Below are positions 7,962 to 59,500 of a DNA stretch of 64,000 nucleotides, one piece after another. Made by a program: the position numbers and the translations under genes. The DNA is taken from positions 436,001 to 500,000 of the forward strand of contig CM075992.1 of the NCBI GenBank assembly GCA_038087875.1, given 5' to 3'. The DNA is from Malacoraja senta (taxonomy: Eukaryota). Positions within the stretch are counted from its first letter, which is position 1, and each line of letters starts with the position of its first letter. The notes below the pieces were generated by a model. That model ran no database searches, was not told the origin of the DNA, and saw nothing but the letters and a program-made list of their open reading frames with translations.

Positions 7962-8091
7962 TGTGTAGGAAAGAACTGCAGATGCTGGTTTAAATCAAAG
8001 GCAGACACAAAATGCTGGAGTAACTCTGCATCTCTGGAGAGAAGGAATGGGTGACGTTTCGGGTCGAGACCCTTCTTCAGACTGACTTGTA
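7962..8091 (-). mobile_element. Short Penelope-like pLTR-derived element with hammerhead ribozyme core
   Basis: Minus strand 8053-8080 = CTGAAGAAGGGTCTCGACCCGAAACGTC; flanked by direct repeat TATTTTAGTAA (7951-7961 / 8092-8102). Confidence 0.8.
8053..8080 (-). ncRNA. Minimal type I hammerhead ribozyme motif (consensus copy)
   Basis: CUGAAGA-A-[GGGU CUCG ACCC]-GAAA-CG-UC: conserved core, 4-bp stem II and palindromic ACGU minimal stem III. Confidence 0.7.
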
Positions 8092-24800: not shown

Positions 24801-27800
24801 TTTTGATTTTGTCTAAACCTTTACTAGGTGCTACTGGTGGATCACCTGAGCATGAGGATCCTGTCTTCCTGCTGCAAGATGTCAGACATAATGGCAGAAG
24901 GAATAACCAGTAAGTAGAGCAGAGCTACAATACAACAATTGACCTGACTTCATAACTAAGATGTAGTTGAAGAGCAGGCCGTTGAAGTGCAGTGCATAAT
25001 CTTGTCAATTGAAAAAGGAACTTTTACAATCATCACTCTTTGCCTGAACGACATCCCACTGAGAACGATGGAGGTATTTCCGGCAACAAATTTGTATTTA
25101 ACTTGGCAAATGCTCATTTTAGATATGAATTCATTTTACCTCTAAAATTAACACTGAACATGGAACAGTATAGCACTGGAACAAGCCCTTTGACCCATCA
25201 TATCCATGCTCAAAATGATGGCAGGTTAATCCCCTCTGCCTGCTTGCGATCCAAACCCTCCATTCCCTGTATATTCATGTGCCTATCTAAAGCCTCTTAA
25301 ATGCCAACATCGTATCTGTGCCCACCACTATTCCTGGCAATGCATTCCTGGCATCCCTGTGTGTGTGTAAATAAAAAAAAAACTGGTTGCACATCTCCTT
25401 TTGAAATTTGCCCCTCTCACCTTAAAGCTGTGCCCTCTTGTTATTGACATTTCCACCCTGTGGGAACATGATTGTGACTGTCTACCATATCTATGCCAAA
25501 AAGCAGTTTTATATACTGTTATCAGGTCTCCCTCCGCATCCAACACCAGAGAGAGCAATCTTGAATTTATTCAGCAGTTACCATTAATCCATAAACCATC
25601 ATTACAAACATCTCATTTATTTGTTGTTAATTTGATTCCTAGTTTTCCATCTTATGCAAAATTGCCATGGTTATCCCTGCAGGAAACAAACTTATTGAAC
25701 CTTTGCTTCTGGCTATAATGTAATAAAGTAAATTGAGTCATAATGTAAAAGTCAAACCAGGCTGTTTACATACTTCAGTGTTGCACAAAACCACATTTTA
25801 AAGAGGAGCAGATTGATGGAAGTATTTATACTGTTCACAACAATTTTAAATTTAGGATCCTGCAGGAGTGTCAATTTTTTTTCCAAGTTACAATTAATGT
25901 TGATATTTTCCCTCAATTATTTTCATAAATGTGTGCATTTGTTAAAGTTGATGCATGATTTCTGCCAGGATAAGCCAATTAGTACTCCTTTATTTATACT
26001 GCTGTGAAATATTAACATCACAATTCATTTCTAATCAGCAAACATTTGCTCCTGAGCTATTATGTAATAAAAGACATTGCTAACAATAATATGGAAGATA
26101 GACGCAAAAAGCTGGAGTAACTCAGCGGGACAGGCAGCATCTCTGGAGAGAAGGAATGGGTGACACTAGGGGGTCAAGACCCTTCTTCAGACTTCCTTCT
26201 TGCACATTTCATCTGCTCCACTAACAATAATATAGAATGTATTTAGCATTTTAGTAGTCTCCTGCACAGAAGTTGGAGCATGTCGTGATTGTTAGAATAT
26301 TACTTCATTTAATCCCTTTTTTTATTCCAGTTGTTGAAGATATCAATAAACGGAGGGAACCAATTCCAAGTTTGGAAGCTATTTACTTGATCACGCCATC
26401 AGAAAAGGCATGTGCTGAGTGCAGGCTGCAAGTATAAACACTCAGTATTACCACACAGACCATTGTGGTTATTCCAGTGTGGTCTGTGTACAATAGAGCT
26501 CTGCAATATATATGCTCTTATATTTGCCTAAGAAAGAACCTCCACTCCCTAGAACAAAAGTCACAGTGCTCCTTGAGAGGGCATTCAATAGGTTTGATTT
26601 GTACAGTAATTACGTATTTAAATCCAGGAAATTCTGTTTGTATTGGATAGAGAAATCCACTGCAACACATAGCTGCTGATAAGTGCGTACGTGCAGTAGT
26701 CACTTGAGCTTGTTATCTTTAACGCGGGTAAGTTAGTGCTCAAAGCACTTCAAGCATGTTGAACTCCTAACCAGTCTAAGTAGCTGACAAAGTTATAAAG
26801 TGCGCCGGCTCCTCCCTTGTTCTCCCCCCCCCTCCCCAGCGGTTCCCCCACGCCGGATCCCCATTGTCCAATTTTTCACCCCCCTCCCTCCCCATTGTCC
26901 CTTGTTCTTTGCCCTCCCTCACGCGCCCGGGTCCTCCATGCTCTTCCCCTTTTCCCCCCTGTATACCTGCATACACACACACACGCACACATGTACACAC
27001 AGAAATTCTGTGGTGCAGATGGTTCATTTTGCAACATCCTGGCCAGTTCTGACACGCGTAGCTGGGAAAATGATTATGAGCATTGAGTGCTGAGGGCTGA
27101 ATGAGAGATGAGGTGCTGTTCCACCAACCGACACTGGGTTTCATTGGAACGCTGTGGGAAATCAAAAGTCGACGGCGGCGTGGGAATGGTTTGGAGAATT
27201 AAAGTGGCAAGTGATTAGGGTTTCTTCTCTGACAAAGAGAGAAGACACATCGCGAGCACCGAATGCTGCTCTGTAGATTGGGTGAGATACAAATGAATTG
27301 CTGCTCCACCAGAGGGAATGATGAAGGTGTTCAGCCTGAAACTTTACCTCTTTCTCTTTCAACATTCACTTCCTCACCTGAGAGTGTCTCCAGCAATTTC
27401 CCCTTTTTTCAGATTTTCAGAATCTGAAGTATAATTGTTTAATTTTCAAAATAAATTTTGATTTTGCTAATTTTTTTTAGATTATGTAATTTTTTTTTTT
27501 AAATGATATTGCCACAGAGTTCCAGATGAATTGTTTTTGTGTGAAAATTATTATTGGAGGGGGGGGGATAGACAATCGTCAAGTAGAACTATCTGCGACA
27601 CCCTCATGAATGACCAGATATCCAATTTGAAACTTGATTTAGATTTTTCTTTTGTCTTCTTAGTTTAGTTTAGAGATACAGTGCGGAAACAGGCCCTTCA
27701 GCCCACTGAGTCCGCACCGACCAGCGATCCCCCACACATTAACACTATCCTACACACACTAGGGACAATTTACACTTATACCAAGCCAATTAACCGACAA

Positions 27801-30800: not shown

Positions 30801-33800
30801 CTCTCGCAGCCTGCCCCGAGTCCCTGTTTACTGAGCTTGGAAAATCACGATGCACAAAAGTAATCAAGACTCTCAAAGAAATACATGCATCTTTTCTTCC
30901 TCTTGAATCCCAAGTGAGTAACTGCAGCAAGCATACCTGAATCGGTATTGATTTGTGTACCATTTCTGATGCTGCAGGATGTGTGGATGAAAGACAGTCA
31001 CATTCTCCACTAATGTCTCTTCATTTTGAGTTAAATTGAAATATATTTCACTCTGACAACCTGCCTTTCGTGGGGTTTTTCTGCAACAAAGTTAAAAGTG
31101 ACGCCTTGTAGTGATTAACAAATTAGCAACGTTCATTCGGACAACTGCAGCATTTAATTTTGTTTTAATGTGATTTGACTTCATAACAATATTACAGTTG
31201 TTATTTTCTTGTTTTTATCCCAATCAAATACTTTAATGTATCTGTAAATGTACAGCCAAAACGATAGCGTTCTACAGTATTTTGGTTGTGAGTAATTCAA
31301 TTTGGGGACCTATCACAAAGCAGCAGTACGGATTTCATTTCATCAGCACAAGTTTTGTTTAGTTTAGAGATGCAGCGCGGAAACAGGCCCTTGGGCCCAT
31401 TGAGTCGTCGCCGACCAGCGATCCCTGCACATTAACACTATCCTACACACTCTAGGGACAATTGTATTTGTTAATATTTTTTTAATGCAGTACTAAACTA
31501 AACTACTGAAGTGAATTATCCTGGATATACTTCAGAATATTTTTGCTTTCCATTAAAAAAAAAACTATTGCAATGTCAACAGTACAATTTCAATTTTTTA
31601 TATTTTTTGTTAAAAGATCTCCGCATTAATTCACTTGACTGATCCATGTTCTGTGTGTGTAATCTCCAAAAGGTGTACTCGCTCGATTCAATGGATTCAT
31701 TTCATCACCTCTTCAACTCTCACGCGGCAAATAGCAACAGCACCTTGCTGGAGAGTATGGCTGAACAGATAGCAACGTTGTGTGAAACTCTGAAGGAATA
31801 TCCAGCTGTGAGATATAGAAAGTAAGCATGTTCAGAAATCTCATTGCCATCGATGTTTGCTTTCTGCCAAGTCAGGTGCCATGGCCCACTATATTAAGGT
31901 ACAAAGGCCCGTGCAATTCTTTCTTCAGACTCTAATTTCGACCCGAAACGTCATCCATTCCTTCTCTTCAGAAATTCTGCCTGTACCGCTGAGTTACTCC
32001 AGCATTTTATGTCTATCTTTGGTATAAACCAGCATCTACAGTTCCTTCCAATATATATTGGCTTTTAGTTCTAATCCTGAGATTTAATAGTATTGCTCCC
32101 TCCTGGTCTACAGTTGTTAGCTTTGCTGTCAAAAGCATTTTTTCTGCTAAGCACCTGATCTCTTCAAGTGCTCCTTAAACTCAGAGTAAACAACGAGTAG
32201 GAAGGAACCACCCAAGTCACACTCTCTCTCTATCCCTCCCCCACCCAAGTCGCACCAGCTTCTCGTTTTCACCCAACAAGCAGCTAACAATAGCCTGTTT
32301 CCTTTATCATCGTTACTTTTTTGCATATCTTTCATTCATCGTTCTTATCTTTCAACATGATCGTCTATATCTCTTGTTGGCCTTTCCTGTGTCTGAAGAA
32401 GAGTCTTGACTCAGAACGTCACCCATTCCTTCTCTCCAGAGATGCTGCCTGTCCCGCTGAGTTACTCCAGCATTTTGTGTCTATCTTCAGTGTAAACCAG
32501 CATCTGCAGTTTCTTCCTACATAGAATGGGTTTAGTGCAGGATTAGGTTGATAGCATGGACCCCGTGGGCTGCTAGGCCTGTTTTCATGCTGAATGACTT
32601 TGAGACGAAAATGGTTGAAATACAGAAGTTGAGAGCATGGGTGCATCAAATGAGGAGCAATGCTTGTTTTAAAGGCTGAAAACATCATATTTAAGCTGCT
32701 TCCACTTGTTGACTGTTCACTGACCACAACTACAATTCTGCAGTGATGTTTGTATGAGTAGTGTATCACTGTTTTGATTCCTGCAGCTAAAGCATTGTGT
32801 GATGAAGCGTCCTGCAGCCTTCTCGATTTCCCCTCTTTGACAAACTATAAGGTTTGGACCTAATGTTATCCCCTCTTGCCCTCAGCCACACTGTTCTTAA
32901 AACTTGCAGCAAGCTAATTGCTTGAGTTATGATTTGTTTTTTTAATTTGTTTCTTTAGGGGCCCAGATATGAATGCAGCCCTGGCAAATCTAATTCACGA
33001 TAAACTGAATGCATACAAAGCTGATAATCCCAGCATGGGGGAAGTAAGTAATATCACTTATTTATTCCTCTGATTATCCATTCTGTCATCTTTATTTATA
33101 CTCTCTGCCTTCTCTATGACAGAGAGCCAATAGTGTTTAAAAACAGACGTGCTGTTTGGAAAGTATATTCTATGCTATTTTATGGATACTACTTGAAGCA
33201 TTTCAGTGGTCCTAATGCCTCATTACTGATATAGGCTGAGAAACAAGGTCGATAAAATAGCACCTCTCTGGGAATTCTTTATAACCTTAATAACACAGCT
33301 TGCTCAGATAACATTTGGTGCACAGTGCGTGCGGAAGCACCACTCTAAAGCTATTAGCTTACAATGTCATAACAAATCTCTGTGCTTTTGAATTCTGTTT
33401 CTAAATCGAACCTGTTGTCACATCTGCAGTTTCAGCAGATGCTTGGAGTCTGAGTTTTCCCTCGTGTTTACAATTGTAGGCCATTGCTATTTTTCAATTA
33501 CATCAAACTGTGTTTTAATGTGAACTGAACCTGCAATTACTGGAGAACTTCATCATGACCCAGGCTACTGAAACTGCAACTTCTGATGTAGTAGCATTAA
33601 ATGTTGGCTTACTCTTATTCATCGCTGTATCCAACGCCTTTTGACATTTGACATGGAATAACCGACTGGAATTGATGAAGCAATTCCTTGAAGTTATCCA
33701 GCAGAGTGATGTGTGGATGGTGGGAGTCTGAGGTCGGGGGTCATTCATCAAAGCCTACATCTTCTATTTCCCTATATACAAAATGACCACTTTAAAAGGG

Positions 33801-36800
33801 TCTCCTTGTTTCTTTCTCTTCTGCTGCCTTCTCTGTCCATTTCCCTGTGTCCAGTGAGCAAAGACCAAGGAAAGGAAAGTTGTCAAGACTGCTTGCCAAT
33901 GTGCACTATCCAGAATTGTGCGTGTTGAGGTGGTGCTGTGGCTAAGTTAGAAGATTGGGAACTTGGAGACCCAAGTTCAAAACCCACCAGAATTGTTAAT
34001 CTGGAATTGTCAGCAGGACATCGGGTCTTTGCTAATGGTGTCCACAAAACCATTGGATTGTTGTTTTTAAAAACTCAAAAGTTTGCTGTTGCCCCTTTTG
34101 GAGGAAAGCTACCTTGCTTGCCTCTTCTAGCGTGTGTGTCCTGAAATATATTGTCTTTCCACTGACTGGTTAGCACACAACAAAAGCTTTTTGCTGTACG
34201 TCGGTACACGTAACAATAAACCAAACTTCCTGTCAGAGGCAGGAACAGGATGGATAGTAATTGCCTGAATTCCCACTGATGTGTGGCAACATAGTGGCGC
34301 AGCTGGTAGAACTGTTGCTTCACAGTGCCAGAGACCCAGTTCTATCCTGACCTCTGGCATTACGTATGTGGAGTTTGCACGTTCGCCCTATGGCCGTGTG
34401 AGTTATTCACACATCCCAAAGGCTTGTGGATTTGAAGGTTGTGTAGGATAGAACTGCAGGTGCTGGTTTAAATCGAAGATAGACACAAAATGCCGGAGTA
34501 ACTCAGCGGGACAGGCAGTATCTCTGGAGAGAAGGAAACGTCAACCATTCCTTCTTGGATTTGGAGGTTAATTGGCCCCTGTAAATTGTCCTTAATGTGA
34601 ACGAGTGATTGATCGGTGTGGGCCGAAGGGCCAGCTTACATGCTGTATGAGTCAGCATGATTCAATGATGTTCATTTTCAGGATGTGAACAACTAAAATG
34701 TGTCTTGAAATATAATGATCACCCACAGATATTCAGACATGATGTTCCCTATGATTCAGGAGTCTCTCAGTACTTTGCCTGTCTAAGCAATCTAATAACA
34801 AGCAGAGTTTGCCAAAATCATAACCTGGGATACATCTCCCAACCAGTTCTTTTCTACACTGGAGTAGATGGGAGTATTTTGGGTTTATTTTGCTTTAGCT
34901 GTTGTTATCAGAAAATGTATTTTCCCAAATATTTTTTTCCATTGCCAATTTCTTAAAGTGACAATAATTTGTTTAATTGATAATCATTCTGAATTAAAAA
35001 TGTTCTCGGAGATGGGATTTAAGTATTCCATTATTTCCGTGTACCTTCTCTGTTCATTACCGATTTTAATATAGTGGGGAAATTGTCTGTAATGTAATCA
35101 AAGTAAAGGCATTAAGCTAGAACCCGACAGCAGCAGCTGGTTAGATTTGCAAGGCAGCATCAATTATCTGGATTGTTTAAAGAGCAATTAACCAACAGTA
35201 GGCTAGGCTTCTGACTGAACACCAGTCCGCTTGCAATCAGCATTTGTTTTGTTTTAAATTGATCTAAATTTCAATGTCGCCAAGATGTTAATGTATCATT
35301 GAGGTGGGGCTAAAGCTGAGCTCTATGGAAGGTCTCTGGAGTGAACCTTGTTGGGTAGGGGTCAGCGTGTATCAGCATTATGTTTCTTACTTCTTACTCT
35401 CTCAAACTCTATTCTTTCTCATTCCTTCTGGCCCACCCTTCCTTGTCCTTTCCAGTTTCCTGTGTTTTTTCTTCCAGAATGCGAACAATTACTCCATTTC
35501 AGCTAAGGGTAAATAACTGTGCTTTTATCTGTTTATTGTGTGTCTCTTTGCAGACCATGCAAAGCCAATTCTTTATAATAGCTTTCTGCATGTTGTGCTA
35601 TTATAAAATCATGGACTTCACATGCTGTAGATTTATGCTAAGCTAAATCTGTACAATTATGCCAAACTAAAACAGACTGGGGAAGGGGAACCTGTGCTAG
35701 GAGACACAAGACACTGCAAGGAAATGAAATTTGGAGATTGGAAAGTTGCAATTATCTAAATGTGCTGTGTTACTTTCCAATCTTCAAATTGTGCTACATA
35801 CATTTTGTTTTGCTACTTTATCCAGTTTGAAAGATGTTTGTGACTTGGATAAGTAATGAAAGACATCTATCTGATGGAAGGGAGGTGAGATAAAGTTAAT
35901 GTTCTTGCAAAGGCAAGATGCATTCCAATACACACTTGGTGTAGATATACGATTTGAATTACAAGCAAGAACTTACATTTAGAACCTATCACTTCCGCAG
36001 GAGCTCTAAGAATCGTTTTCCACGTTCAGAAATGCTTTGAAAGATATTTGGCCCCACAAGCCATTAAATGCTAAATCACTTGTGAACATGCAGTGGTATT
36101 GTTGGTTTAGGAATATTGTATTTGTCAAATAGTAGAAGCATTGGATCCATTGCACGAATGGAGAAAGGATGTCATGAGGTTAAAACTATTCTCTGTCGCA
36201 CAGTGAAGTAAAGTGAGACGATTTGGGGTATTTATAGATGAATTTTTGAAAAATTGCCAAGCTAACAGCTACGAACAATTGGCACAGAATAGGGTATTAG
36301 CGTTTAGGAAACCATTACAGGTGATTCCTAGGCTTTGATGAGAATGGAATGATACAGTTGTAGTCCCGTCCAGTTGGGTTGTGGGAGAATGTGACCGTGT
36401 CAAAGGTTGGGAGCGGTCAGGGAGAGCGGGGAAGGACAACTTATTGTTGTCACAGTCACATTGGTTCCCACTTCTGGTTTTGGCAAAGAGCCACATGGAT
36501 TGGGGCAAGACCTGATTTGAAGGGATTTAAATTCAAGTTCTAGTTATGAAGGATGTTGTTAAAACAAATTGACCTGCAAGAGTAGATGGGAATGAGAAAA
36601 TAAATACCATTCACATTTATAATAATTGATGACTATTCCTACTCGGTCCTAAATGCCTCCCCTCCCAACACTACCCTGGGATTAGATGAGTCTGGCTGTC
36701 AAGTTAGTGAGGTGGATTTGTAAACATAGAGTTCACTAACTCGGCTGTAATATTTACCTCCACAGATCTCCTAAATTTAGTATACAGTGTATGCCTTTTG

Positions 36801-39800
36801 TTTAATCTATTACATCAATTCTTATTTAAAAATAAATATAGATTTGCAGTTGGAAAAGACTTATTATAATGGAAATATTTCTCAATCATTTTTAGTCATT
36901 GCTATAGTCATCGTTTTATTGAAGACTGGAAGTGTGGAAGCTTTTATTATTTCCAACCTGCGAGGATATGATTAGAACTTAATAGGTTAAAAAACAGTTA
37001 ATCACCCGTAGAAGCGCAGGTGGATCAGATGTTTGCCTTGCTCAAGGAAAGGTGATTTTGTGTCAATTGCTGAATGCTGATTGAATTCCCCCTCTTCCCC
37101 CCCCCCCCCCCCCCCCCCAAGCGCTATGCAACTGCTCCCTCTACCTGCAGATTTTGAGCTTGGAAAAACGTAGTCATTGTCCCAATGCCTTGACCCAGTT
37201 GTGACAGTGCAAACTACCCACTACAGCAGTAATGTCTCCACAAAAATATAGGTCTTGGTTTGTAGCAGTCTCAGCTTCATTTGCTCAGTATTTGTTTCCA
37301 TTTATATTTCTAAAGATTACTTTGTAAGGTGACATAAAGGAAAATATTTTGATCAGCTTTCTCATTTTTTTTATTGATTAGCTTTCAATAGTTCAAAGTA
37401 TGTCTTGTACATTTGGACCCATGTGAAATAATGTCTTGAGGAGATGCAAGGAATTGCAGATAGACACAAAATGCTGGAGTAACTCAGCGGGACAGGCAGC
37501 ATCTCTAGAGAGAAGGAATGGGTCTGAAGAAGGGTCTTGACCCGAAACATCACCCATTCCTTCTCTCCAGAGATGCTGCCTGTCCCATTGAGTTACTCCA
37601 GCATTTTGTGTTTATCTTCGATTTAAACTAGCATCTGCAGTTCCTACCTAAACAAGGAATTGCAGACACTGGTTTAAAAGAAAAAGACAGTGCTGGTGTA
37701 ACAAAATGGGTCAGGCAGACTGAAGAAGGGTCCTGACACGAAACATCATCTATCCATGTTCTCCAGAGATGCTGCCTGACCCGCTGAGTTACTCCAGCAC
37801 TTTGTCTTTTTTTTTGGACAAAATGTCTTTATGCGAATTGTGTAATTGTTTTCTGTAATGCTGCTACTGAGATATCAGAGAGGAATAATAAATAAAATGA
37901 TGCCATCTCAAACCTTTAGCACGATTTATAAACTTGGTTAGTTAGTTGGTCTGACATAAAAATGGACAATGCTGGAGACCCTCAGCAAGTTTGGCTGCAT
38001 CTGTGGAAAGAGTTAACTTTTCAGACCAGAAATCCCAGCCCCATAACTAGGATAGAAAGGCAAGGGTCTTAGAAATGAAATGTTACTTTGATTTCTCTTT
38101 CTACACATGCTCTCTGACAATTTTTCCAGTATTTTCTGTTGTATTTCCAGTTTCCACCATCTGCAGTTTATTTTTTGTCCTGGTCTGAACTTGGGTGGTT
38201 TCTGGCATTATAGCCTGTGGTGTGGGTATCAAGCAGTTACAGGTATGTGGGATCTGGATGGGGAACACAGGAACATGTGGTGATCAAGCTGATTTACAAG
38301 ACTGTTCTAACTACACAAGCAATTCCCATCCAGATGTTGTCACTGGTAGGCTAAAAGGATAGTCAGTGAGTCCTATGTAATATAATTTGGCTTGATGTTT
38401 CTGTCTGTAATTGAAGATAACCCCTTAATCCTGTGTGCACTCTCATATGCTCATTTGTCTGCATCTTTTTGACCAGGGTCCTGAAAAGTCACGTTCACAA
38501 CTATTGATTCTGGACCGGGGTTATGACTGTGTATCCCCAATACTGCATGAGCTCACACTCCAGGCAATGGCCCACGACCTTCTGCCCATTGAGCAGGACA
38601 TATATTCGTAAGTTACCTTTTAAACTACCTTTTTGTGTTGGGAGCTGCTGCAACTTTCTTGGGACACATTCCATTGAAGGTTGTGAAAGAATCCCATTAT
38701 TATTAAGGATAACACTTTCAGGTAAAGGCCAATTTGAACAGTATAAAATGTTTGTTCGTTGTTTCCTTTGAGATCATTAGCTCTTCATTCTGAGTTTTTC
38801 TGCCTTTAGTTGATTTTAATATTCCATTTCTCAGTTCCTCGTGATTCAAGAGGGGAGAATGGAAACTTTAGTTTAGAGATACAGCAAAGAAACGGACCCC
38901 TTCATCCCACCATGTCCGAGCTGACCAATTATCACCCATACACCAGTTCTATGTTATCCCAGTTTTCCATTCGAGACACTAGGGGAATTTTACAGAAGCC
39001 AATTAATCTACAAGCTGGCACTTCTTTGGAACGTGGAAGGAATCCGGAACACCTGGAGAAAACCCATTTGGTCACAAGTAGAACATACAAACTTCATACA
39101 GACAGCGCCCATAGTCAGGATCGAACCTGGGTCTCTGGCGCTGTGAGGTAGCAACTCGACCACTGACCCACTGTGCCGAACCTAGAGATATTTTGTCGGG
39201 AATAAATTGCAATCTCAGCAACTTTCTGTCTTTGTAGTAAGCTGGGTACATGCTTGAACACTTTACTGCTTTATTCCTCAGGTATGATACTACAGGAGTG
39301 GCAGAGCAACGTGTGAAAGAAACCCTTCTCGACGAGGACGACGAGCTGTGGATGAAGCTGCGCCACTTGCACATTGCTGACGTCTCCAAGTATGTGCACT
39401 TGAATTGCAGCTAAGCTTCAAAAGCACTTTATTTGTTGTGATATAGTGAAGGATGCCTGTGGGGCTGGAGTGAACAATTCACTAATGGTTTGGAAAAATG
39501 TTGTGCATTCTGCTTCAGTTAGCACAGTTGCTGTTTTCCATGTGGTCAACATTTCCACACTGAAGTGCCATAATCTTTGCTCTGTTACATTCTCAGAAAA
39601 CTAGTAAAATATAAACACACATGCACACTTCTAGAATAAGAATAATAATTGCCGTCTACAAATATTGAACAACAACATTATTTTATCTAACCTTCCTGTG
39701 CTCATCCACTTAGTGTTGCTTGCCCCATGGAGAATAGTAAAGGAATTTAAAATTACAATTCATTGATTCTACATGTACACACATTAAAAAGCAAGTCTCC

Positions 39801-45800: not shown

Positions 45801-48800
45801 GTGATGTTTTGGGTCGGGACTCCAGGGATGCTGCATGACCCGCTGAGTTACTCTAGCACTTTGTGTCTATCTTTGGTATAAACCAGCAGCTGCAGTTCCA
45901 TTTTATTATATCTTTAAACTCTTCAGTTGTATCAAAATGCTTTGATGGGCAATAAGTGCTGACCACGCCAGCAATTCCCACAGCCAGAGTAAAGGCTTAA
46001 ATCTTGTATTAATGAAGATTAGATTCAAGTTCAAGTTCACATTTATAGTCACATGCACAAATTGGTACAGTGAGATTGTGTGCATGCGTAGAATAACCCG
46101 CTCCCAGTATTTATTAATACTGTGTTCATAATATCTGAGGAATCTTTAACTGAAGTGAACATTTCTTCCACCTTCCAGTGCCCGCTTTGGTCACTGGCAC
46201 AAGAGCAAGACTCCAACAGAGTACAGAAGTGGACCCCGACTCATTGTTTTTGTTATCGGAGGCATCGCCATGTCTGAGATGCGCTGCGCCTATGAAGTAA
46301 CAAAAGCCACCGATAACAAATGGGAGGTGTTGATTGGTAAGTGTCATTCTAGAGTCATACAGCATCAAAACAGGCCCTTCCACCCAACTTGTCCACGCCA
46401 ACCAACATGTACAGGTGTCAGGGGTTATGGGGAGAAGGCAGGAGAATAGGGTTAGGTGAGAGAGAGAGATAGATCAGCCACGATTGAATGGTGGAGTAGA
46501 CTTGATGGGCCGAAAATGGCCTAATTCTACTCCTATCACTTATGATCTTATGATGCCCCATCTACACTCATCCATCTACCTGCGTTTGGCCCATTTTCCT
46601 CTAAATCTATCCTATCCATGTACCTGTCTAAATGTTTCTTTAATGTTGTGATAGTAAAATATCTACGTGGGATCATCTATACTGGAAACACTTATAGAAT
46701 TTGTCCAAATATTGTAGACTTTGACCCATTCTATCCAAACGGGGTACGTCAAGGGTACACTATCAGCTGGCACATGAAATGGCAGCTGGGAATTGTGGTT
46801 TGAATTCACTCATAAAGGCAAGTCACCCATTTCAGTTCGTCCTGCTTTTCATATTCCTGTCAGAAATAGTTATCATAGAAAATAGGTGCAGGAGTCAGCG
46901 ATTCGGCCCTTCAAGGCATTCAATACAATCATGGCTGATCATCCAAAATCAGTATCCCGTTCCTGCTTTCTCCCCATATCCCGTGATTCCGTTAGCCCTA
47001 AGAGCTAAATCTAACTCCTCTTATCATTGTGAGTGGCAAAATATTCTTGCCATGTAAGTCACTCGCAAAGGAAAACAACCATCTAATTTGTGTACAGGAG
47101 GCTCTGAGAAGCACAGTCTGATACTGACCATCCACTTGCAACAAATGCTAAATACAAGGTAATAGTCAAAGTTTGAGGTAATATGTTCATAAGTGATAAG
47201 AACAGAATTTAAGTCAAGTCTACTCCCCCATTCAATCTTGCCTGATCCACCTTTCCCTCTCAAACCCATTCTCCCATAACCCCTAACACCCGTACTAATT
47301 AAGAATCTATCAATCTGTCTTAAAAATATCCATTGACTTGGCCTCCACAACCGTCTGTGGCAATGAATTCCTCTGTCACGGACCTGCCTGTGGGAATTTT
47401 GCCTGTGGCCTCCACAACCTCTTTTGTGGAAGGTGCGACCTGTACAAAAAGGATGGGTTGCACTTGAACCTGAGGGGGACCAATATCCTGGCGGGGAGAT
47501 TTGCAAAGGCTACTGGGGAGACTTTAAACTAGAACGGTTGGGGGGAGGGACTCAAATAGAGAAAGCTATTAGACAGTGTGTGAGGCAGGAGGCAGAGAAG
47601 GAAAGCACCCAGACCCAACATGTAGGGGGGAAAGAAGAAAACAATAATAAACAGAGAATAAGAGGTGGTGGGGTTCTTAAATGGGTGAGCAGAGAAACAG
47701 AGGGGTGTAAAATGCGGGCGGAAGCAATAGGTAGCAAGGTGAAAAGTAAAAGTGGCAGGCAGACAAATCCAGGGCAAAAATCAAAAACGGCCACTTTTCA
47801 ACATAATTGTAAAAGGGGTAAGAGCATTGTAAAAACAAGCCTGAAGGCTTTGTGTCTCAATGCAAGGAGCATTCGTAATAAGGTGGATGAGTTGAACGTG
47901 CAGATAGCTATTAATGATTATGATATAGTTGGGATCACGGAGACATGGCTCCAGGGTGACCAAGGCTGGGAGCTGAACATCCAGGGATATTCAATATTTA
48001 GGAGGGATAGAGAGAAAGGAAAAGGAGGTGGGGTAGCATTGCTGGTTAGAGAGGAGATTAACGCAGTGGAAAGGAAGGACATTAGCTTGGAGGATGTGGA
48101 ATCGGTAAGGGTAGAGCTGCGAAACACTAAGGGGCAGATAACACTAGTGGGAGTTGTGTACAGGCCACCTAACAGTAGTAGTGAAGTTGGGGATGGCATC
48201 AAACAGGAAATTAGAAATGCGTGCAACAAAGGCAAAACAGTTATAATGGGTGACTTCAATCTACATATAGATTGGGTGAATCAAATTGGCAGGGGTGCTG
48301 AGGAAGAGGATTTCTTGGAATGTATGTGGGATAGTTATCTAAACCAACATGTAGAGGAGCCAACGAGAGAGCAGGCTATTCTAGACTGGGTATTGAGTAA
48401 TGAGGAAGAGTTAGTTAGCAGTCTTGTTGTGCGTGCCCCCTTGGGCAAGAGTGACGATAATGTGGTTGAGTTCTTCATTAGGATGGAGAGTGACATTGTT
48501 AATTCAGAAACAATGGTTCTGAACTTAAAGAAAGGTAACTTTGAGGGTATGAGACGTGAATTGGCCAAGATTGACTGGCAATTAGTTCTAAAAGGGTTGA
48601 CGGTGGATATGCAATGGAAGGCATTTAAAGACTGCATGGATGAACTACAAAAATTGTTCATCACAGTTTGGCAAAAGAATAAATCAGGGAAGGTAGTGCA
48701 TCCGTGGATAACAAGGGAAATCAGGGATAGTATCAAAGCAAAAGATGATGCGTACAAATTAGCCAGAAAAAGCAGCATACCAGAGGACTGGGAGAAATTC

Positions 48801-50907
48801 AGAGACCAGCAGAGGAGGACAAAGGGCTTAATTAGGAAAGGGAAAATAGATTATGAAAGAAAACTGGCAGGGAACATAAAAACTGACTGCAAAAGTTTTT
48901 ATAGATATGTGAAGAGAAAGAGATTAGTTAAAACAAATGTAGGTCCCTTGCAGTCAGAAACAGGTGAATTGATCATGGGGAACAACGATATGGCGGACCA
49001 ATTGAATAACTACTTTGGTTCCGTCTTCACTAAGGAAGACATAAATAATCTGCCGGAAATAGCAGGGGACCGCGGGTCAAAGGAGATGGAGGAACTGAGT
49101 GAAATCCAGGTTAGTCGGGAAGTGGTGTTGGGTAAATTGAATGGATTAAAGGCCGATAAATCACCAGGGCCAGATAGGCTGCATCCCAGAGTACTTAAGG
49201 AAGTAGCTCCAGAAATAGTGGATGCATTAGTGATAATTTTTCAAAATTCTTTAGATTCTGGAGTAGTTCCTGAGGATTGGAGGGTAGCAAACGTAACCCC
49301 ACTTTTTAAGAAGGGAGGGAGAGAGAAAACGGGGAATTACAGACCAGTTAGTCTAACATCGGTAGTGGGGAAACTGCTAGAGTCAGTTATTAAAGATGGG
49401 ATAGCAGCACATTTGGAAAGTGGTGAAATCATTGGACAAAGTCAGCATGGATTTACGAAAGGTAAATCATGTCTGACGAATCTTATAGAATTTTTCGAGG
49501 ATGTAACTAGTAGAGTGGATAGGGGAGAACCAGTGGATGTGTTGTATCTGGACTTTCAGAAGGCTTTCGACAAGGTCCCACATAAGAGATTAATATACAA
49601 ACTTAAAGCACACGGTATTGGGGGTTCAGTATTGATGTGGATAGAGAACTGGCTGGCAAACAGGAAGCAAAGAGTAGGAGTAAACAGGTCCTTTTCACAA
49701 TGGCAGGCAGTGACTAGTGGGGTACCGCAAGGCTCAGTGCTGGGACCCCAGCTATTTACAATTTATATTAATGAACTGGATGAGGGAATTGAAGGCAACA
49801 TCTCCAAGTTTGCGGATGACACTAAACTGGGGGGCAGTGTTAGCTGTGAGGAGGATGCTAGGAGACTGCAAGGTGACTTGGATAGGCTGGGTGAGTGGGC
49901 AAATGTTTGGCAGATGCAGTATAATGTGGATAAATGTGAGGTTATCCACTTTGGTGGCAAAAACAGGAAAGCAGACTATTATCTAAATGGTGGCCGATTA
50001 GGAAAAGGGGAGATGCAGCGAGACCTGGATGTCATGGTACACCAGTCATTGAAAGATGCAGGTGCAGCAGGCAGTGAAGAAAGCAAATGGTATGTTAGCT
50101 TTCATAGCAAAAGGATTTGAGTACAGGAGCAGGGAGGTTCTACTGCAGTTGTACAGGGTCTTGGTGAGACCACACCTGGAGTATTGCGTACAGTTTTGGT
50201 CTCCAAATCTGAGGAAGGACATTATAGCCATAGGGGGAGTGCAGAGAAGGTTCACCAGACTGATTCCTGGGATGTCAGGACTTTCATATGAAGAAAGACT
50301 GGATAGACTCGGCTTATACTCGCTAGAATTTAGGAGATTGAGAGGGGATCTTATAGAAACGTACAAAATTCTTATGGGGTTGGACAGGCTAGATGCAGGA
50401 AGATTGTTCCCGATGTTGGGGAAGTCCAGGACAAGGGGTCACAGCTTAACGATAAGGGGAAAATCCTTTAAGACCGAGATGAGAAAAAACTTTTTCACAC
50501 AGAGAGTGGTGAATCTCTGGAACTCTCTGCCACAGAGGGTAGTTGAGGCCAGTTCATTGGCTATATTTAAGAGGGAGTTAGATGTGGCCCTTGTGGCTAA
50601 AGGGATCAGGGGGTATGGAGAGAAGGCAGGTACGGGATACTGAGTTGGATGATCAGCCATAATCATATTGAATGGCGGTGCAGGCTCGAAGGGCCGAATG
50701 GCCTACTCCTGCACCTATTTTCTATGTATCTATGTAATTCTTGATCCTTCACTTGCGGCTGAGGCATGTCTATTTTTATCTGGTCAATAACAGAACAACA
50801 TTTATCCATTTTTTGTCTCCACTCTAGGTTCTACTCACATCCTCACTCCAGAAAAATTCCTGGACAGCCTGAAGAATTTAGACAATCCCTTGGAGGCACA
50901 AAGCTGA
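15831..50907 (+). CDS. STXBP2: Syntaxin-binding protein 2 (Munc18-2, Sec1/Munc18 family), 19 coding exons, 591 aa
   Basis: Exon lengths 37,50,82,77,79,104,149,85,131,108,58,66,81,139,107,99,86,158,80 sum to 1776 nt in one open frame. N-terminus [15 protein letters not shown] and motifs [11 protein letters not shown] and SARFGHWHK are STXBP2-type. Lies next to PET100 as in human. Confidence 0.97.
16447..16755 (-). mobile_element. tRNA-derived SINE (HE1/V-SINE-like), near full length
   Basis: Reverse complement of the SINE consensus seen at 9357 and 45363. Confidence 0.85.
17468..17656. mobile_element. Fold-back PLE-derived element inserted in a Rex1/Babar LINE 3' fragment (17415-17785), 15-bp TSD
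   Basis: Inverted arms; direct repeat CAACCTGAGGAGTAC at 17453-17467 and 17657-17671. Confidence 0.8.
18656..18728. repeat. 40-bp-period tandem duplication
   Basis: ATTGCACTGAGAGCCATTTTGTGGAACCCTTGG occurs twice. Confidence 0.9.
19345..19668 (+). mobile_element. CR1 LINE 3' fragment
   Basis: [19 protein letters not shown] plus conserved 3' UTR and tail. Confidence 0.9.
22817..23750 (+). mobile_element. CpG-rich, apparently young non-autonomous interspersed element nested in a PLE-derived element
   Basis: High CpG content, 3' AATAAA plus (ATCTTGA)n tail; interrupts the PLE-type arms at 22760-22816 and 23751-23790. Confidence 0.6.
24391..24440 (+). CDS. STXBP2: STXBP2 exon 2
   Basis: (K)[16 protein letters not shown]; ag|..|gt. 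Confidence 0.95.
24828..24909 (+). CDS. STXBP2: STXBP2 exon 3
   Basis: [27 protein letters not shown]. Confidence 0.97.
26331..26407 (+). CDS. STXBP2: STXBP2 exon 4 (GC donor)
   Basis: [25 protein letters not shown]; donor AAG|GCATGT. Confidence 0.92.
27075..27320 (-). mobile_element. Decayed Penelope-like element GIY-YIG endonuclease fragment
   Basis: Minus-strand frames give [19 protein letters not shown]..., [10 protein letters not shown] and [10 protein letters not shown], resembling the PLE endonuclease pattern (FTC.S.N.IY.I.C..C...HFN...H...LEEQHLI). Confidence 0.7.
27660..27966 (-). mobile_element. tRNA-derived SINE (HE1/V-SINE-like), full length
   Basis: Reverse complement of the SINE consensus. 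Confidence 0.88.
29654..29732 (+). CDS. STXBP2: STXBP2 exon 5
   Basis: [26 protein letters not shown]. Confidence 0.97.
30535..30690 (-). mobile_element. Decayed Penelope-like element reverse transcriptase fragment
   Basis: Frameshifted [13 protein letters not shown] / [14 protein letters not shown] / TEPISTY, resembling the PLE RT motif P....FY.LPKIHK...PGRPIVS...CPT..IS.YLD. Confidence 0.75.
30810..30913 (+). CDS. STXBP2: STXBP2 exon 6
   Basis: [34 protein letters not shown]. Confidence 0.97.
31673..31821 (+). CDS. STXBP2: STXBP2 exon 7
   Basis: VYSLDS...[21 protein letters not shown]. Confidence 0.97.
32959..33043 (+). CDS. STXBP2: STXBP2 exon 8
   Basis: [28 protein letters not shown]. 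Confidence 0.97.
37461..37652 (+). mobile_element. Fold-back PLE-derived element with hammerhead core at the hairpin apex, 14-bp TSD
   Basis: Arms 37461-37523 / 37552-37614; core 37524-37551; TSD CAAGGAATTGCAGA at 37447-37460 / 37653-37666. Confidence 0.8.
38477..38607 (+). CDS. STXBP2: STXBP2 exon 9
   Basis: [43 protein letters not shown]. Confidence 0.97.
38868..39178 (-). mobile_element. tRNA-derived SINE (HE1/V-SINE-like)
   Basis: Reverse complement of the SINE consensus. Confidence 0.85.
39282..39389 (+). CDS. STXBP2: STXBP2 exon 10
   Basis: [35 protein letters not shown]. Confidence 0.97.
40160..40400 (+). mobile_element. Rex1/Babar-like LINE C-terminal fragment
   Basis: Encodes ...[15 protein letters not shown]...[18 protein letters not shown]. 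Confidence 0.7.
40449..40506 (+). CDS. STXBP2: STXBP2 exon 11
   Basis: [19 protein letters not shown]. Confidence 0.97.
41453..41518 (+). CDS. STXBP2: STXBP2 exon 12
   Basis: [22 protein letters not shown]. Confidence 0.97.
42049..42129 (+). CDS. STXBP2: STXBP2 exon 13
   Basis: [27 protein letters not shown]. Confidence 0.97.
42610..42748 (+). CDS. STXBP2: STXBP2 exon 14
   Basis: [26 protein letters not shown]...[15 protein letters not shown]. Confidence 0.97.
44161..44267 (+). CDS. STXBP2: STXBP2 exon 15
   Basis: [35 protein letters not shown]. Confidence 0.96.
44733..44831 (+). CDS. STXBP2: STXBP2 exon 16
   Basis: [33 protein letters not shown]. Confidence 0.95.
45200..45285 (+). CDS. 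STXBP2: STXBP2 exon 17
   Basis: [28 protein letters not shown](S). Confidence 0.95.
45363..45650 (+). mobile_element. tRNA-derived SINE (HE1/V-SINE-like), near full length
   Basis: TGGCGCAGCGG A-box, GGTTCAATCCT B-box, (TAAAC)n tail. Confidence 0.88.
46179..46336 (+). CDS. STXBP2: STXBP2 exon 18
   Basis: [52 protein letters not shown]. Confidence 0.97.
47420..50735 (+). mobile_element. Near-intact CR1-clade LINE (end of esterase-type ORF1, APE + RT ORF2, 3' UTR) in STXBP2 intron 18
   Basis: ORF1 tail [11 protein letters not shown]...* ends at 47532. ORF2 has APE motifs (LNARS, GITETWL, GDFN) and RT motifs ([15 protein letters not shown]), split into 47424-50120 and 50056-50643 by one frameshift. 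Ends in a TCTATGTATCTATGT tail. Confidence 0.97.
50828..50907 (+). CDS. STXBP2: STXBP2 exon 19 (terminal)
   Basis: (G)[25 protein letters not shown]. Confidence 0.96.
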
Positions 50908-54100: not shown

Positions 54101-55734
54101 CCAGATCTGGGTATCCTTCAGCAATTTACAGGAGCTTCCCGTTCCTTCAGAAGGTGGTTGTGAGGGGATTGTTGTGACTAAAGGGTATTCTCACACCTGC
54201 AGTCAGATCGCATGCCTTGAACTGGAAGGAGCAATTTGATTCAATGTTCTGCCCTTGGACTCCACCGGGTAATGTGCCTATAGTCAACAATCCAATGGAT
54301 TTAATTGCAGTATGTACATGATTTAACTGGATGGCAATAATCAATGTAAATATTTCTTCTTTAGTGGTAATAGCCAGAATATTTTTTGTATGTACGTGCA
54401 TTTAACAATGACAGTGCTACTCGCGTGGTGTGTGTTGTGTATAATCTGCAAAAGATATAATAAACTTATCCTTTTGTTATTTAATTGAATTCTGTTTCCG
54501 AAATGAAAACCTAGCATTTTTATACCATGACCTTGGGACAAGCTGAACAATCTTTTGAACATGGATAGGTGACATTTCAGGTAGGGATCCATCTACAGAC
54601 TCTGGTAAAGCCATCACGTGTCCATGTTCTCCATGGCTGCTGTCTGACCCAATGAGTTACTCCAACACTGTCCTTTTCTGTAAATCAGAGCCCATGGTTC
54701 CTTGTTGATTCATGTACTCCAGGTCTTCCTTCATTCATTCATTAGCCATTTCATTCTCAAATGTGAATCAAATCGAACAATTAATAAGCAACCTCCTATT
54801 CTCATCTTTATTTTTGAGGAGGTTTGTGATTGAATCAGCTGTTGATGGTTGGCCTTTGAACAGTTGTGATGGTTCAATATAGTTTAGTTTATTGTCACGT
54901 GTACCGAGGTACAGTGGAAAACATTGTTGTTGCGTGCTAACCAGTCAGCAGAAAGACAATACATGATTACAATCGAGCCACTAATTTTGTGCAATCAGAT
55001 GGCTTCTCTCTTGGTCTTTGACCGTTTTCCATTTAATTTCACTTTAATCAATGTCGTCTTTGAATTGTTCCTAGTTACATTAGTCTATCTTGGAGCTTCC
55101 ATGTACAATTCTGTTTTTAAGCCAAGTCTCTAAAGCAAGCAGTTATCTGAAATATACTTTTCGAATGCAGGGAATTGCTTGATAAAACAGTGGAGTTACA
55201 GCAAATAAAACGGTCCTTCATGCACCCTTGTCTATGTTGACCATCCAGTTGTAACCAGAAAATTAGAGTGACAGAGTTGGAGGACATGTGGGTTCCCGCA
55301 GTGAGGAGCAGAGCGAGATTTGTACATGTACTGACTTGAGATTGCCCTTGCCACTCTTTTAATTGTAATGGGGTCTTCAGATCCAATAGAAAGATGAAAC
55401 CTTGGGGTGACAACACTGGAACTCTCCAACTCGAGCAGCATCTGTGCAAGCAAAGGGTCGGATGTCATTTCTGGTTGAGCACTGCATCAGGACCAAGAGT
55501 GTGGATGGCAGATTGTCAGAAGAAAGAGATGAGGGATAGGGGTGAGACGCTGCTAGGCTAAGAGATGAGGGATAGGGGTGAGACATGCTGCTAGGCTATG
55601 AGTGGAATTGGGTGAGGAGGAGGAAGTACAGAGAGACTGGATGTGAAAAATGAAACAATCAAAAGATAGGACCCTTGTGGAGAGACTATCAATACTTCCC
55701 AATGCCTGACTGCAGACAGAACAACCAAAGGTAG

Positions 55735-55920
55735 CCACAAAAAGCTGGAGTAACTCAACAGGACAGGCAGCATCTCTGGAGAGAAGGAATGGGTGACGTT
55801 TCGGGTCGAGCCCCTTCTTCAGACTGGTTATGGATAAGGGAAACTAGAGATATAGACGATGATGTAGAGAGATAAAGAACAATGAAAGATATGCAAAAAA
55901 CTAACAATGATAAAGGAAAC
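55735..55920 (-). mobile_element. PLE pLTR-derived element with intact hammerhead core (55795-55822) and extended upstream segment
   Basis: Minus strand CTGAAGAAGGGGCTCGACCCGAAACGTC; 55830-55920 matches the reverse complement of 32295-32390. Confidence 0.75.
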
Positions 55921-56466
55921 ATGCTGACATCAAGTGAAATCTGACCATCTCTTCAATAGTTTGTATTGCACTAATGTGGACTTTTCAGGAAAGTTATTTA
56001 AACCTTGTCATTGCCGTGATCAGATCCAACGTTGGAATGGATTCATTGAGAGGATGATCTAATTATTTTTAAACAGAAATCTGTCACACACAAAAATGAT
56101 CAATAAACCAACAGTAGACAAAAAATGCTGGAGAAACTCAGCGGGTGAAGCAGCATCTATGGAGAGAAGGAATAGGCGACGTTTCGGGTCTCGACCCAAA
56201 ACATCACCTACACCTTCTCTCCATCGATGCTGCCTCACCCGCTGAGTTTCTCCAGCATTTTTGTCTACCTTCGATTTTTCCAGCATCTGCAGTTCTTTCT
56301 TACATAAACCAACGGTGGTATGGAGGGGAAGAAAACTGACTTGTGCTGATTTACTGGTAAAACAATGACCTGGTGCTATGTCACAATGTGAGCAATTGCA
56401 GACTCTTTATTCAATGTCAAAAGCTCTGGAGATGGTGCATGTGTTTTAACAAAGTGGGGAAAGAAA

Positions 56467-56524: not shown

Positions 56525-59500
56525 GTAAGTATGGATACTTGTTTCAGACATTTAGCAGTTGTAGAGCAGATTCAGGAGTACAAAAATGTTGTTCGACAAC
56601 AACTTTTGCTGTCTGTCTTTGAGGTATACTGTTGTAACCTGAAGCAAAAAATATTCCTTTGGTATCAAGTCTCTGTTTAATTGCGAGAGCTGATTCACCT
56701 GTAAACCATCTGCCCTACTTAAAGGAGGACACAATTAGAATAAAACTCGAGTATGCTTATTACTTGGTTTGCTGTAAGATTGAAAGGGATCACTTTTCAG
56801 AAAATACTTTCATAGTAATTTCCTCAGTGGAGGAGTATTCCTTGGGTTGATCTGCCTAAAATCATCCTTGTCCCGTTTCATAAGTATTAAACATCAAAGT
56901 GGAGCCTGATCCAATTCATGTTCACAGTGGTGTTTGTGTGGAGTTTGCACGTTCTTGCTGTCATTACATGGGTTCCCTCTGGGTGCTAGGTTTCCATAGA
57001 TACATAGACAATGGGTGCAGGGGTAGGCCATTCGTCCCTTCGAGCCAGCACCGCCATTCAATGTGGTCGTGGCTGATCCTACATACTAAACACATGCAAA
57101 TTTGTAGGTTAATTGGCCTCTGTAAAATTTGCTCCTAGTGTGTAGGGAGTGGGTGCGAAAGTGCGAGGATTGGCAGAAGGGCCTGTTTCCATGTTATACC
57201 TCTAAACTAAAGTAGATGGCCCTAATGTTTGTACTCCCGTCTTTCGCATCCCTTCCCATCAGCAGTTAATCCAACCACACACACACCCTAGATACCTGAA
57301 ACGTCACCCATTCCTTCTCTCCAGAGATGCTGCCTGTCCCGCTGAGTTACTCCAGCTTTTTGTGTCTACAGTTTAAGCCAGCATCTGCAATTCCTTCCTA
57401 CATCCTACGTACCCTTACTTTGAAACCACTTCACAAACTATAGAGCACTTAATGAGAATTGTCAAAATCCTATTGGTATACTGTCTTGAGATTATCCAAC
57501 GCAGATGTTCACAAGCTTACACAGTAGGTGTAAAGAGGACACTACACCCACGAGCACAGGATTGAAACCTTTGTATCTTTGCGCACTTTTACAGGATGTG
57601 GTGTACCAACAGTGAGATATAAAAACAACTTTGCCAGAGAGATACGCATTGGAGAGTTCCCCTGGCAGGTCCATCTACAACTGAAGTGGAAATACCTGTG
57701 TGGTGGGGACATACTCAGCCGGTGGTGGGTTGTGACCACAGCGCACTGCATCTTCATGTAGTAAGTATCATGTGATTTTGGAGCAGCCATAATTTGTGGA
57801 AAATATCAATATTGTTAACTCGTCAGTTTGAAGAAGGGTCCTGACCCGAAACATCACCTATCCATGTTCTCTTGAGATGCTACCTGACCCGCTGAGTTAC
57901 TCCAGCACTCTGTGAAACGTCACCTATCCATGTTCTCCACAGATGCTGCCTGACCCGCTGAGTTACTCCAGCACTCTGAAACGTCACCTATCCATGTTCT
58001 CTTGAGATGCTACCTGACCCGCTGAGTTACTCCAGCACTCTGTGAAACGTCACCTATCCATGTTCTCCACAGATGCTACCTGACCCGCTGAGTTACTCCA
58101 GCATTTAGTGCCTTTCCTTGTTAACCTATCAATTCTAACTTCGCAGACCTGCATTTATTAACTGTTTAAGAAAGAACTGCAGATGCTGGAAAAATCGAAG
58201 GTTAGACAAAAATGCTGGAGGAACTCAGCGAGTGAGGCAGCATCTATGGAGCGAAGGAATAGGTGACGTTACGAGAACCGTAACGTCACCTATTCCTTCG
58301 CTTCATAGATGCTGCCTCACCCGCCGAGATTCTCCAGCATTTTTGTCTACCTAGCATTTATTAACTGATGACCAGTCAGATGGTTGTGAATCTGTGGAAT
58401 TCATTGCCACAGAAGGCTGTGGAGGCCAAGTCAATGGATATTTTTAAGGCAGGGATAGATAGATTCTTGATTAGTACGGGTGTCAGGGTTTTTTTATGAA
58501 CCTGATCACTCTGGTGTGCCAGTACAGCCGACAGCTACCAGTGCACAAGGTGGAGCAACAGACCACCATCATGCACGCTCCTCTTCAGTCAATGTTCATA
58601 GTTTGATCAAAAGAGACTGAAGATGTGGGAATCTTGAGCAAGACACAATCCTGGAGGCCCTCAGCGGGTCAGGCAGCATCTGTGGAGGAAATAGGAAATG
58701 GACAGGCAATGTGTCTGGTCGGGACCCTTCGTCAGACTGGGTTGAAATGTCATCTGTCCACTCCCTCTGCAGATGTTGCCTGACCCACTGAGTTCCACCA
58801 GCTCTATGTGAAACATATTGATTGTGAAATTATTAAATTCATTTAATTTCACCTTTCCATTAGATATACACCATGGAAACATGCCCTTCAGCCCACCTTG
58901 TTTGTCCATGCCAATTAAGATGCCCCATCTATGCTAGTCCTACTTATCCTCATTTGACCCCTTATCCTGATCCTTTTCTATCCATGTACCATGATTTGTA
59001 GAAATTAGGAACTACAGATGCTGGTTAATAAACAAAAGGACACTGGAGTAACTCAGTGGGTCAGGCAACATTTCTGGGGAACAAGGATTGGTGACTTTTT
59101 GGGTTGAGATACTTCATCAAATTCCTATTTTTAGTTTGAAGATAGACATAAAGCTGGAGTAACTCAGTGGGTCTGACAGCATCTCTGGAGAAAAGGAATA
59201 GGCGACGTTTCGGGTCCCTTCTTCAGACTCCTATTTTTAGTTTATTCCTTTTTATTACTGCAAACACAATTAAATTACTTTTGTGCTGCTTTATTCAACA
59301 GTTCTGAAGCTCTCTTTGAAAGTCTCGTCATTGTCACTGGCACACTCAAGCTGGAAGGCTTGCGGATTATTTATGGAGTTCACAAGGTCATCTTGCACGA
59401 ATACTTTATTTTTGAACTGTTTGGGTTTAAAATCCCAGACAACGACATTGCTCTCGTCATGGTGAAGGAACCAATCGTATTCAACAAACTTGTATCGCCC

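Follow-up and report, generated by a model that had tools for sequence, protein, structure and literature searches.

The window, that is, the whole 64,000-nucleotide stretch of Malacoraja senta DNA that was analysed (contig CM075992.1), carries the gene STXBP2, whose exons span 15831 to 50904 on the + strand as mapped by tblastn. Between the eighth and ninth exons lies a fold-back of a short repeat, inserted in sense within intron 8 of the skate gene, as the initial annotation had claimed. In a PDB search the host protein was ambiguous between STXBP1 and STXBP2 (54.6 vs 51.5 bits); a homolog search separated the two, exon 9 showing 100% identity over 40 aa to syntaxin-binding protein 2 of Leucoraja erinacea. 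Of the words sampled from 34800-39800, 96% and 88% were present in two sequencing runs of one organism. The last STXBP2 intron furthermore harbours nearly intact LINE-type endonuclease-reverse transcriptase frames of 917 aa and 196 aa (47367-50643, + strand), and a second partial LINE-type copy is found at the window start (193-1402), both of which we take to be CR1-like. A GC-rich region at 1421-2300 contains a coding-like tandem repeat with a 21-nt period that is open in several frames, and downstream of STXBP2 exon-like frames occur at 59177-60650 (+ strand), which we assume to resemble a trypsin-type serine protease.

Architecture of the fold-back

Family positions are counted throughout from the C of the CUGANGA box as position 1 (37524 in the focal copy); the preceding base has the number 0, and the first base 3' of the cleavage triplet (37552) the number 29. 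From left to right the focal insert consists of a target duplication, a tail-less inverted arm (29-91), a tailed forward copy (-1 to 129) and the second duplication (Table 1), the left arm stopping at 91-94 and the right arm at about 129, so that a tail is present on one end only. The arms 37461-37523 and 37552-37614 are indeed reverse complements over 63 nt, with 59 of the 63 bp paired, the first 16 bp from the apex perfect and mismatches at 37568/37507, 37587/37488, 37588/37487 and 37612/37463. This pairing does not continue further inward and extends by 3 bp outward, into the target duplication. The hammerhead core forms the apex loop and the right arm begins directly after the triplet, both as initially described, which places the junction at 29-31 given the overlap of the arms. 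The RNA fold predicted for 37447-37666 has a free energy of -148.5 kcal/mol (z -19.9), and none of 200 shuffled sequences was equally stable. The four differences between the arms are all C>T or G>A, as are the two informative changes in the core, a pattern that looks like neutral deamination.

The exact 14-nt direct repeat that brackets the insert belongs to the inverted tail of an older fold-back of a sister subfamily, whose left end reaches about 37439; hence the focal insert is nested in a relative, with the inverted tail of that older copy as its target. We also considered the left 14-mer as an extension of the inverted arm, set apart by a deletion, and rejected this, as it matches the right repeat at 14/14 positions vs 11/14 for the reverse-complemented tail of the focal copy itself.

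Table 1 Coordinates of the fold-back insertion and its surroundings (window positions)
Feature	Position	Strand	Basis or remark
STXBP2 exon 8	32960-33043	+	tblastn
STXBP2 intron 8, host intron	33044-38476	+	tblastn exon map
Left target-site duplication, 14 bp	37447-37460	+	exact repeat of 37653-37666
Inverted tail-less arm, family positions 29-91	37461-37523	-	ambiguity of 3 nt at the outer and 2 nt at the inner end
2-nt overlap common to both arms, native 2-bp helix I	37522-37523	not assigned	GT in 14/15 other copies
Minimal type I hammerhead core	37524-37551	+	CUGANGA, extra A, stem II, GAAA, AUC; helix III absent
Forward body (29 to ~97) and 30-nt tail (~37621-37652)	37552-37652	+	sequence alignment
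Right target-site duplication	37653-37666	+	exact repeat of left 14-mer
Older decayed sister-subfamily fold-back, insertion recipient	37653-37809	not assigned	tailed inverted arm ending at 37718; forward core starting at 37720
STXBP2 exon 9	38477-38608	+	tblastn

The repeat family and its hammerhead core

The repeat is very abundant, with about 45-50 pieces in the 64-kb window (blastn) and, in four runs from three organisms, 100,870 to 177,287 contigs per run aligning to a single monomer (55700-55950). In family copies a minimal hammerhead core is followed by a body that runs to about 91-98 and, optionally, by a tail that reaches about 127-129, both tail-less and tailed 3' ends being present among the window copies. 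Including the focal one, 13 fold-backs of the same repeat were found in the window; those at 17545, 56190 and 58275 share its architecture, with duplications of 10-15 bp, and have their apexes in stem II. A direct repeat of at least 10 nt was present at 4 of the 10 loci tested for a target duplication. A pattern scan for further fold-backs gave no matches in prokaryote genomes and 7 further short matches in viral sequences. Another 116 metagenome and 119 viral loci from pattern scans were rejected as chance matches, because none of the 235 matched the element by blastn. Our literature search yielded no paper that deals with this skate family or with where inversion points lie with respect to the hammerhead sites of Penelope-like elements (PLEs); repeat databases presumably already hold the family.

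Several features point to a Penelope-like element: an inverted 5'-truncated copy adjoins a forward copy in all 13 fold-backs, a tail is optional and confined to one end, a hammerhead motif lies in the terminal repeat, and target-site duplications and partial tandems occur. This assignment rests on architecture, given that no reverse transcriptase plus GIY-YIG endonuclease ORF of at least 100 aa linked to the family was found within the 64-kb window. The copies do not behave as MITEs, as ends and apexes differ between them and the duplication measures 10-15 bp instead of being fixed, nor as non-LTR retrozymes, the focal insert being inverted and not tandem and the 66-nt tandem at 57848 lacking a CUGA box in its units. 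We regard the focal insert as a probable ordinary case of Penelope-type retrotransposon insertion with inversion, in line with the earlier view that the inversion was made by retrotransposition. Some further copies deserve description. The tandem just mentioned (57848-58103) holds 3.9 units of family positions 21-86 at 91% matches behind one full core. At 27077-27400 (- strand) a frameshifted remnant is joined to an inverted old hammerhead-end arm; its part 27077-27321 presumably resembles the C-terminal end of a PLE GIY-YIG endonuclease, and a Pfam search of three pieces of this remnant gave no hits. At 8081-8110 a short piece of the flanking target DNA is repeated in inverted orientation at the 5' junction of a plain copy, which suggests a template jump onto the flank.

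The focal core 37524-37551 is made up of the CUGANGA box and an additional A, a stem II of GGGU/ACCC, GAAA and an AUC triplet, most window copies having GUC instead. Within 37524-37547 we found the features of minimal type I hammerheads, namely the core boxes, the extra base before 10.1 and the G10.1-C11.1 pair; as Rfam at its gathering score gave no matches in the whole 64-kb window, the hammerhead call rests on the motif together with the description of minimal hammerheads in the available part of PMC4209133. With only two bases between A15.1 and U16.1, helix III cannot close in cis, and its pair probability in the folding prediction is 0. Pairing in a dimer is likewise hampered: the G-to-A change at 37549 turns the ACGU palindrome into ACAU, so that the focal copy lacks the dimer palindrome, its predicted self-duplex having an energy of +3.4 vs -1.7 for ACGU, and a helix III forced in the dimer is predicted to be 10.8 kcal/mol worse than two hairpins. 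Among 24 window cores the palindrome reads ACGT in 14, ACAT in 6 and ATGT in 4, and its CpG-decay variants make up 12% and 8% of depth in run X1; judged from these sequence variants, the focal palindrome loss is ordinary CpG decay. Single minimal hammerhead motifs are described as not cleaving and dimers as cleaving at a low level (PMC4209133). The idea that the ribozyme would work once helix I is complete is not supported, since helix III cannot form and single minimal hammerheads did not cleave (PMC4209133), and we predict the focal ribozyme to be inactive.

The long double-stranded RNA announced for the insert is borne out by prediction, as a 61-bp helix in the sense pre-mRNA. Comparable helices of 64 and 67 bp are predicted at 17467 (STXBP2 intron 1) and 58165, and since two other fold-backs of the window give such helices, the proposed role as ADAR substrate is generic: editing of the focal hairpin is as conceivable as that of other long duplexes in introns. 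For the present-day focal copy we predict an inert hairpin within the intron.

Inversion junctions and the cut site

The initial annotation took the position of the inversion point on the predicted cut site as a possible sign of a self-cleaved template. We scored the 26 arm ends of the 13 window fold-backs, a small sample with an end uncertainty of about 3 nt in old copies; five ends (17545, 37718, 54601, 58742 and 11615) were set by eye because the aligner crossed the palindrome or a reference was lacking, and the fold-back count does not include a pair of inverted pieces, both very short, near 31925 and 32200. Only the focal end falls within 2 nt of the cut site (27-31; 1/26, with a chance expectation of 1.7-2.2), and 3/26 do so with a 3-nt margin (26-32), whereas 8/26 lie at the family's usual 5' edge (-3 to +3) and 11/26 in or beside stem II (9-21). 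Under a uniform spread, the probability of at least one end in a 3-nt interval is 0.65-0.74. Of the non-inverted copies, 17/23 start at -4 to +2 (14 called by the aligner and 3 by eye; references may limit the calls for five old-subfamily copies), 2/23 have long upstream sequence, 3/23 start at 14-17 and 1/23, the copy at 22817, starts near the cut site at position 28. With 1/26 arm ends and 1/23 plain copies near the site, both at chance level, the coincidence does not show a self-cleaved template.

Moreover, breakpoints were tabulated in about 600,000 contigs from four runs (X1, X2, X3 and X8) of three organisms, the element position being 55823 minus the window position; 24 of 1228 loose ends (six per run) and the 15 best-supported of 228 joints were listed, and some others remained uncounted. 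The top listed upstream loose ends at -1/-2/-3 comprised 524/705/1244 contigs in X1, 739/1007/1815 in X2 and 989/1351/2124 in X8, those at -2/-3 comprised 1368/2254 in X3, and a further listed upstream end at 41 corresponds to the divergence point of the sister subfamily. No peak at 29 was found among the six loose ends listed per run in the four runs. In X1 the summed depth falls about 8-fold across the -3 to -1 edge (1.53M to 0.18M), with no comparable step at 28/29. Six of the best 15 of 228 joints change strand, namely (43,-3) with 13 contigs, (41,6) with 7, (41,-2) with 37, (41,-3) with 35, (36,-3) with 13 and (29,-3) with 17, whereas the focal joint itself (29-31 with -1 to 1) is absent among these 15. 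The joints at 41, and perhaps those at 36 and 43, probably pool clipped alignments of the sister subfamily. As the other strand-change joints are more easily blamed on such clipping, the opposite-strand (29,-3) joint, which recurs in all four runs (4, 3, 6 and 4 contigs), possibly reflects a real minor preference; CpG changes at 25-26 could also clip alignments near 29. The listed 5' ends thus peak at -3 to -1 and not at the cut site, although one point in favour of the initial reading is that the (29,-3) joint, with one arm ending exactly at the cut site, recurs in 17 contigs. Breakpoints fall mainly at the 5' edge of the core, and at the cut site at most a small excess may exist, the listed joints and loose ends being a part of the total.

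The dominant edge itself (-3 to -1; 55824-55826) is preceded by a pyrimidine tract, a CTGAC resembling a branch point and a CAG (11695-11716, + strand; about -25 to 0), and it also reads as an initiator-like TCAGTC. By these motifs it could be the 3' splice site of a PLE intron or a transcription start; the splice-site idea draws on the PLE of D. virilis, in which helix I has 2 bp and its 5' end coincides with the intron end (PMC4209133). Furthermore, the listed joints 55826-55792 and 55826/55825-55795 come from contigs with apparent tandem repeats of the core alone (about -3 to 31-34). Minimal cores placed side by side in this way could form a dimer ribozyme, the type of the 55795 joints being our interpretation.

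The family sequence itself can explain the focal junction. GT precedes the core in 14 of the 15 other aligned copies that cover the site, so it is the family's own sequence, and at -1/0 it pairs with AC at 29/30 as the native 2-bp helix I. AC occurs in the family at 17, 24, 29 and 72; as a GT/AC match offers only three sites in the first 60 nt (17, 24 and 29), a junction at 29 is about a 1-in-3 event, and chance, together with the 2-base match, probably placed the focal junction at the ribozyme cut site. Stem II holds the apex in three more window copies, whose duplications measure 10-15 bp.

With reasonable confidence we favour a Penelope-type insertion in which both target strands were primed and the cDNAs were joined by the 2-base match, RNA cleavage being unneeded. 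A staggered cut, 14 nt apart, would have been made in the AT-containing tail of the older copy, a Penelope-type reverse transcriptase-endonuclease would have primed cDNA on both nicked strands, and reverse transcription from two internal start sites would have given one tailed and one tail-less cDNA. The long cDNA would then have stopped at the usual edge (-3 to -1) and annealed with its 3' end to a complementary stretch of the other cDNA; alternatively, a single cDNA might have snapped back on itself, for which the same junction is expected. Directly seen are the duplication, the tail on only one of the two arms, the 2-nt overlap and the older copy's tail as target, and the focal forward arm starts at the family's usual 5' edge. 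Because antisense cDNAs would be complementary where the RNA has stems, junctions should gather on hammerhead helices whether the RNA was cut or not. In PLEs, an inverted 5'-truncated copy adjoins the forward one, with an optional 30-40-bp tail on one arm and short overlaps or palindromes at the junctions (PMC8557442, PMC3846280), and cDNA snap-back has been proposed in general terms (PMC3846280). According to the available part of the lizard PLE study (PMC11167929), the protein, a predicted dimer, cuts and extends both target strands in vitro, starts reverse transcription at two sites delimiting the tail, prefers ATT and inserts uncut RNA, hammerhead cleavage being dispensable in vitro, and no RNA reads started at the cut site. 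From this mechanism and from PMC3846280 we infer double priming or snap-back, both of which give the focal junction without cleavage; twin priming as such is putative for PLEs.

A template cleaved by the ribozyme would give a related insertion, in which the short arm is cDNA of the 3' cleavage product (RNA 5' end at 29) joined to cDNA of uncut RNA, as a minor class. For the focal copy this seems unlikely: although its arm end is compatible with 29 exactly and the non-inverted copy at 22817 begins at 28, such ends are at chance level in both sets (1/26 and 1/23), no loose-end peak at 29 appears among the six listed per run, the focal joint is missing from the best 15 of 228 and the 2-nt match accounts for the junction without cleavage. 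The template was nevertheless probably dimer-competent at insertion, since the ACGT palindrome is kept in 14/24 window cores, and protein-assisted hammerhead cleavage occurs in vitro (PMC11167929). Mainly the (29,-3) joint, present in all four runs with 17 contigs and among the best 15 of 228, keeps alive the rather doubtful idea that a minor inversion class records germline hammerhead cleavage, with an arm from cut RNA (29) and one from uncut RNA (-3), the -3 end then being the putative splice-acceptor or start site.

Origin after insertion, by fork template switching or break repair, or spread of a fold-back master in a MITE-like manner, is improbable. Short overlaps as seen at the junction are also typical of DNA repair joints, and recurrent joints could descend from a master copy; on the other hand, both arms lie inside the duplication and stop at the family's two 3' ends, one tail-less and one tailed, each of the 13 window fold-backs has a different apex and the ends are not the terminal inverted repeats of a fixed element. 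We give very little credence to the long stem I as an active ribozyme or as a selected ADAR or splicing regulator of STXBP2. The intact CUGANGA and GAAA boxes, the AUC triplet, which is of a cleavable hammerhead type, and the 61-bp predicted helix in the sense pre-mRNA would fit such a function, but helix III is absent in cis, the palindrome is broken, the four arm changes and both informative core changes are all C>T or G>A decay, and equally long helices occur at 17467 and 58165; moreover, single minimal hammerheads are inactive (PMC4209133).

Significance and comparison with known systems

The role of the hammerhead in PLEs is described as unclear (PMC8557442). The single focal copy matters little, being one among many decaying inverted insertions. 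As a dataset the family is useful, and a genome-wide breakpoint table for the skate could cheaply test that role, the sharper signal being that the start of most copies lies 1-3 nt upstream of the core instead of at the cut site. If the cleavage reading is true, the (29,-3) joint recurring in three organisms would represent a first genomic trace of PLE hammerhead activity in vivo, and a family of more than 100,000 copies would let both RNA ends be mapped at base resolution.

In twin priming of L1, a 5' inversion lies inside one target duplication with a microhomology joint. The focal insert shares the enclosed inversion and the microhomology joint, but involves another enzyme class and lacks poly(A), and unlike in L1 both arms cover the same 3' sequence, giving a hairpin. 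As far as they are covered in the available parts of PMC3846280 and PMC8557442, Penelope/Poseidon and Neptune, endonuclease-positive PLEs with inverted pseudo-LTRs, also carry a head-to-head inverted 5'-truncated copy with a tail of about 30 nt on one arm only, and they share the target duplication, the junction overlap or palindrome, partial tandems and a terminal-repeat hammerhead. In contrast to PLEs with pseudo-LTRs, the skate arms hold no ORF and only the terminal 60-130 nt, the repeat reaches about 45-50 pieces in 64 kb, and its duplications measure 10-15 bp vs 8-10 bp in the rotifer examples (PMC3846280, PMC8557442).

The core resembles the minimal hammerheads of metazoan PLEs in the extra base between 9 and 10.1, the G10.1-C11.1 pair, the palindromic 15.2-16.2, the missing loop 3 and the mostly dispersed single motifs (PMC4209133), whereas in the focal copy the palindrome is lost and a 63-bp helix I has arisen by accident; skates or sharks were not found in one of the two supplement files of that study. 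With the Poseidon element PAc of Anolis the skate repeat shares two 3' ends delimiting the tail, an AT-containing target, insertion into its own terminal region and the lack of a 5'-end peak at the hammerhead cut site, although PAc, unlike the skate repeat, is autonomous (PMC11167929). As to non-LTR retrozymes, the available parts of PMC7229834 and bioRxiv 10.64898/2026.07.22.740005, the latter having sampled one cartilaginous fish, describe elements that are likewise non-autonomous, carry a type I hammerhead and are thought to be mobilised by PLEs; these form tandem units of 170-400 nt with canonical hammerheads, whereas the skate copies are scattered, many of them inverted, and their truncation lies at the core.
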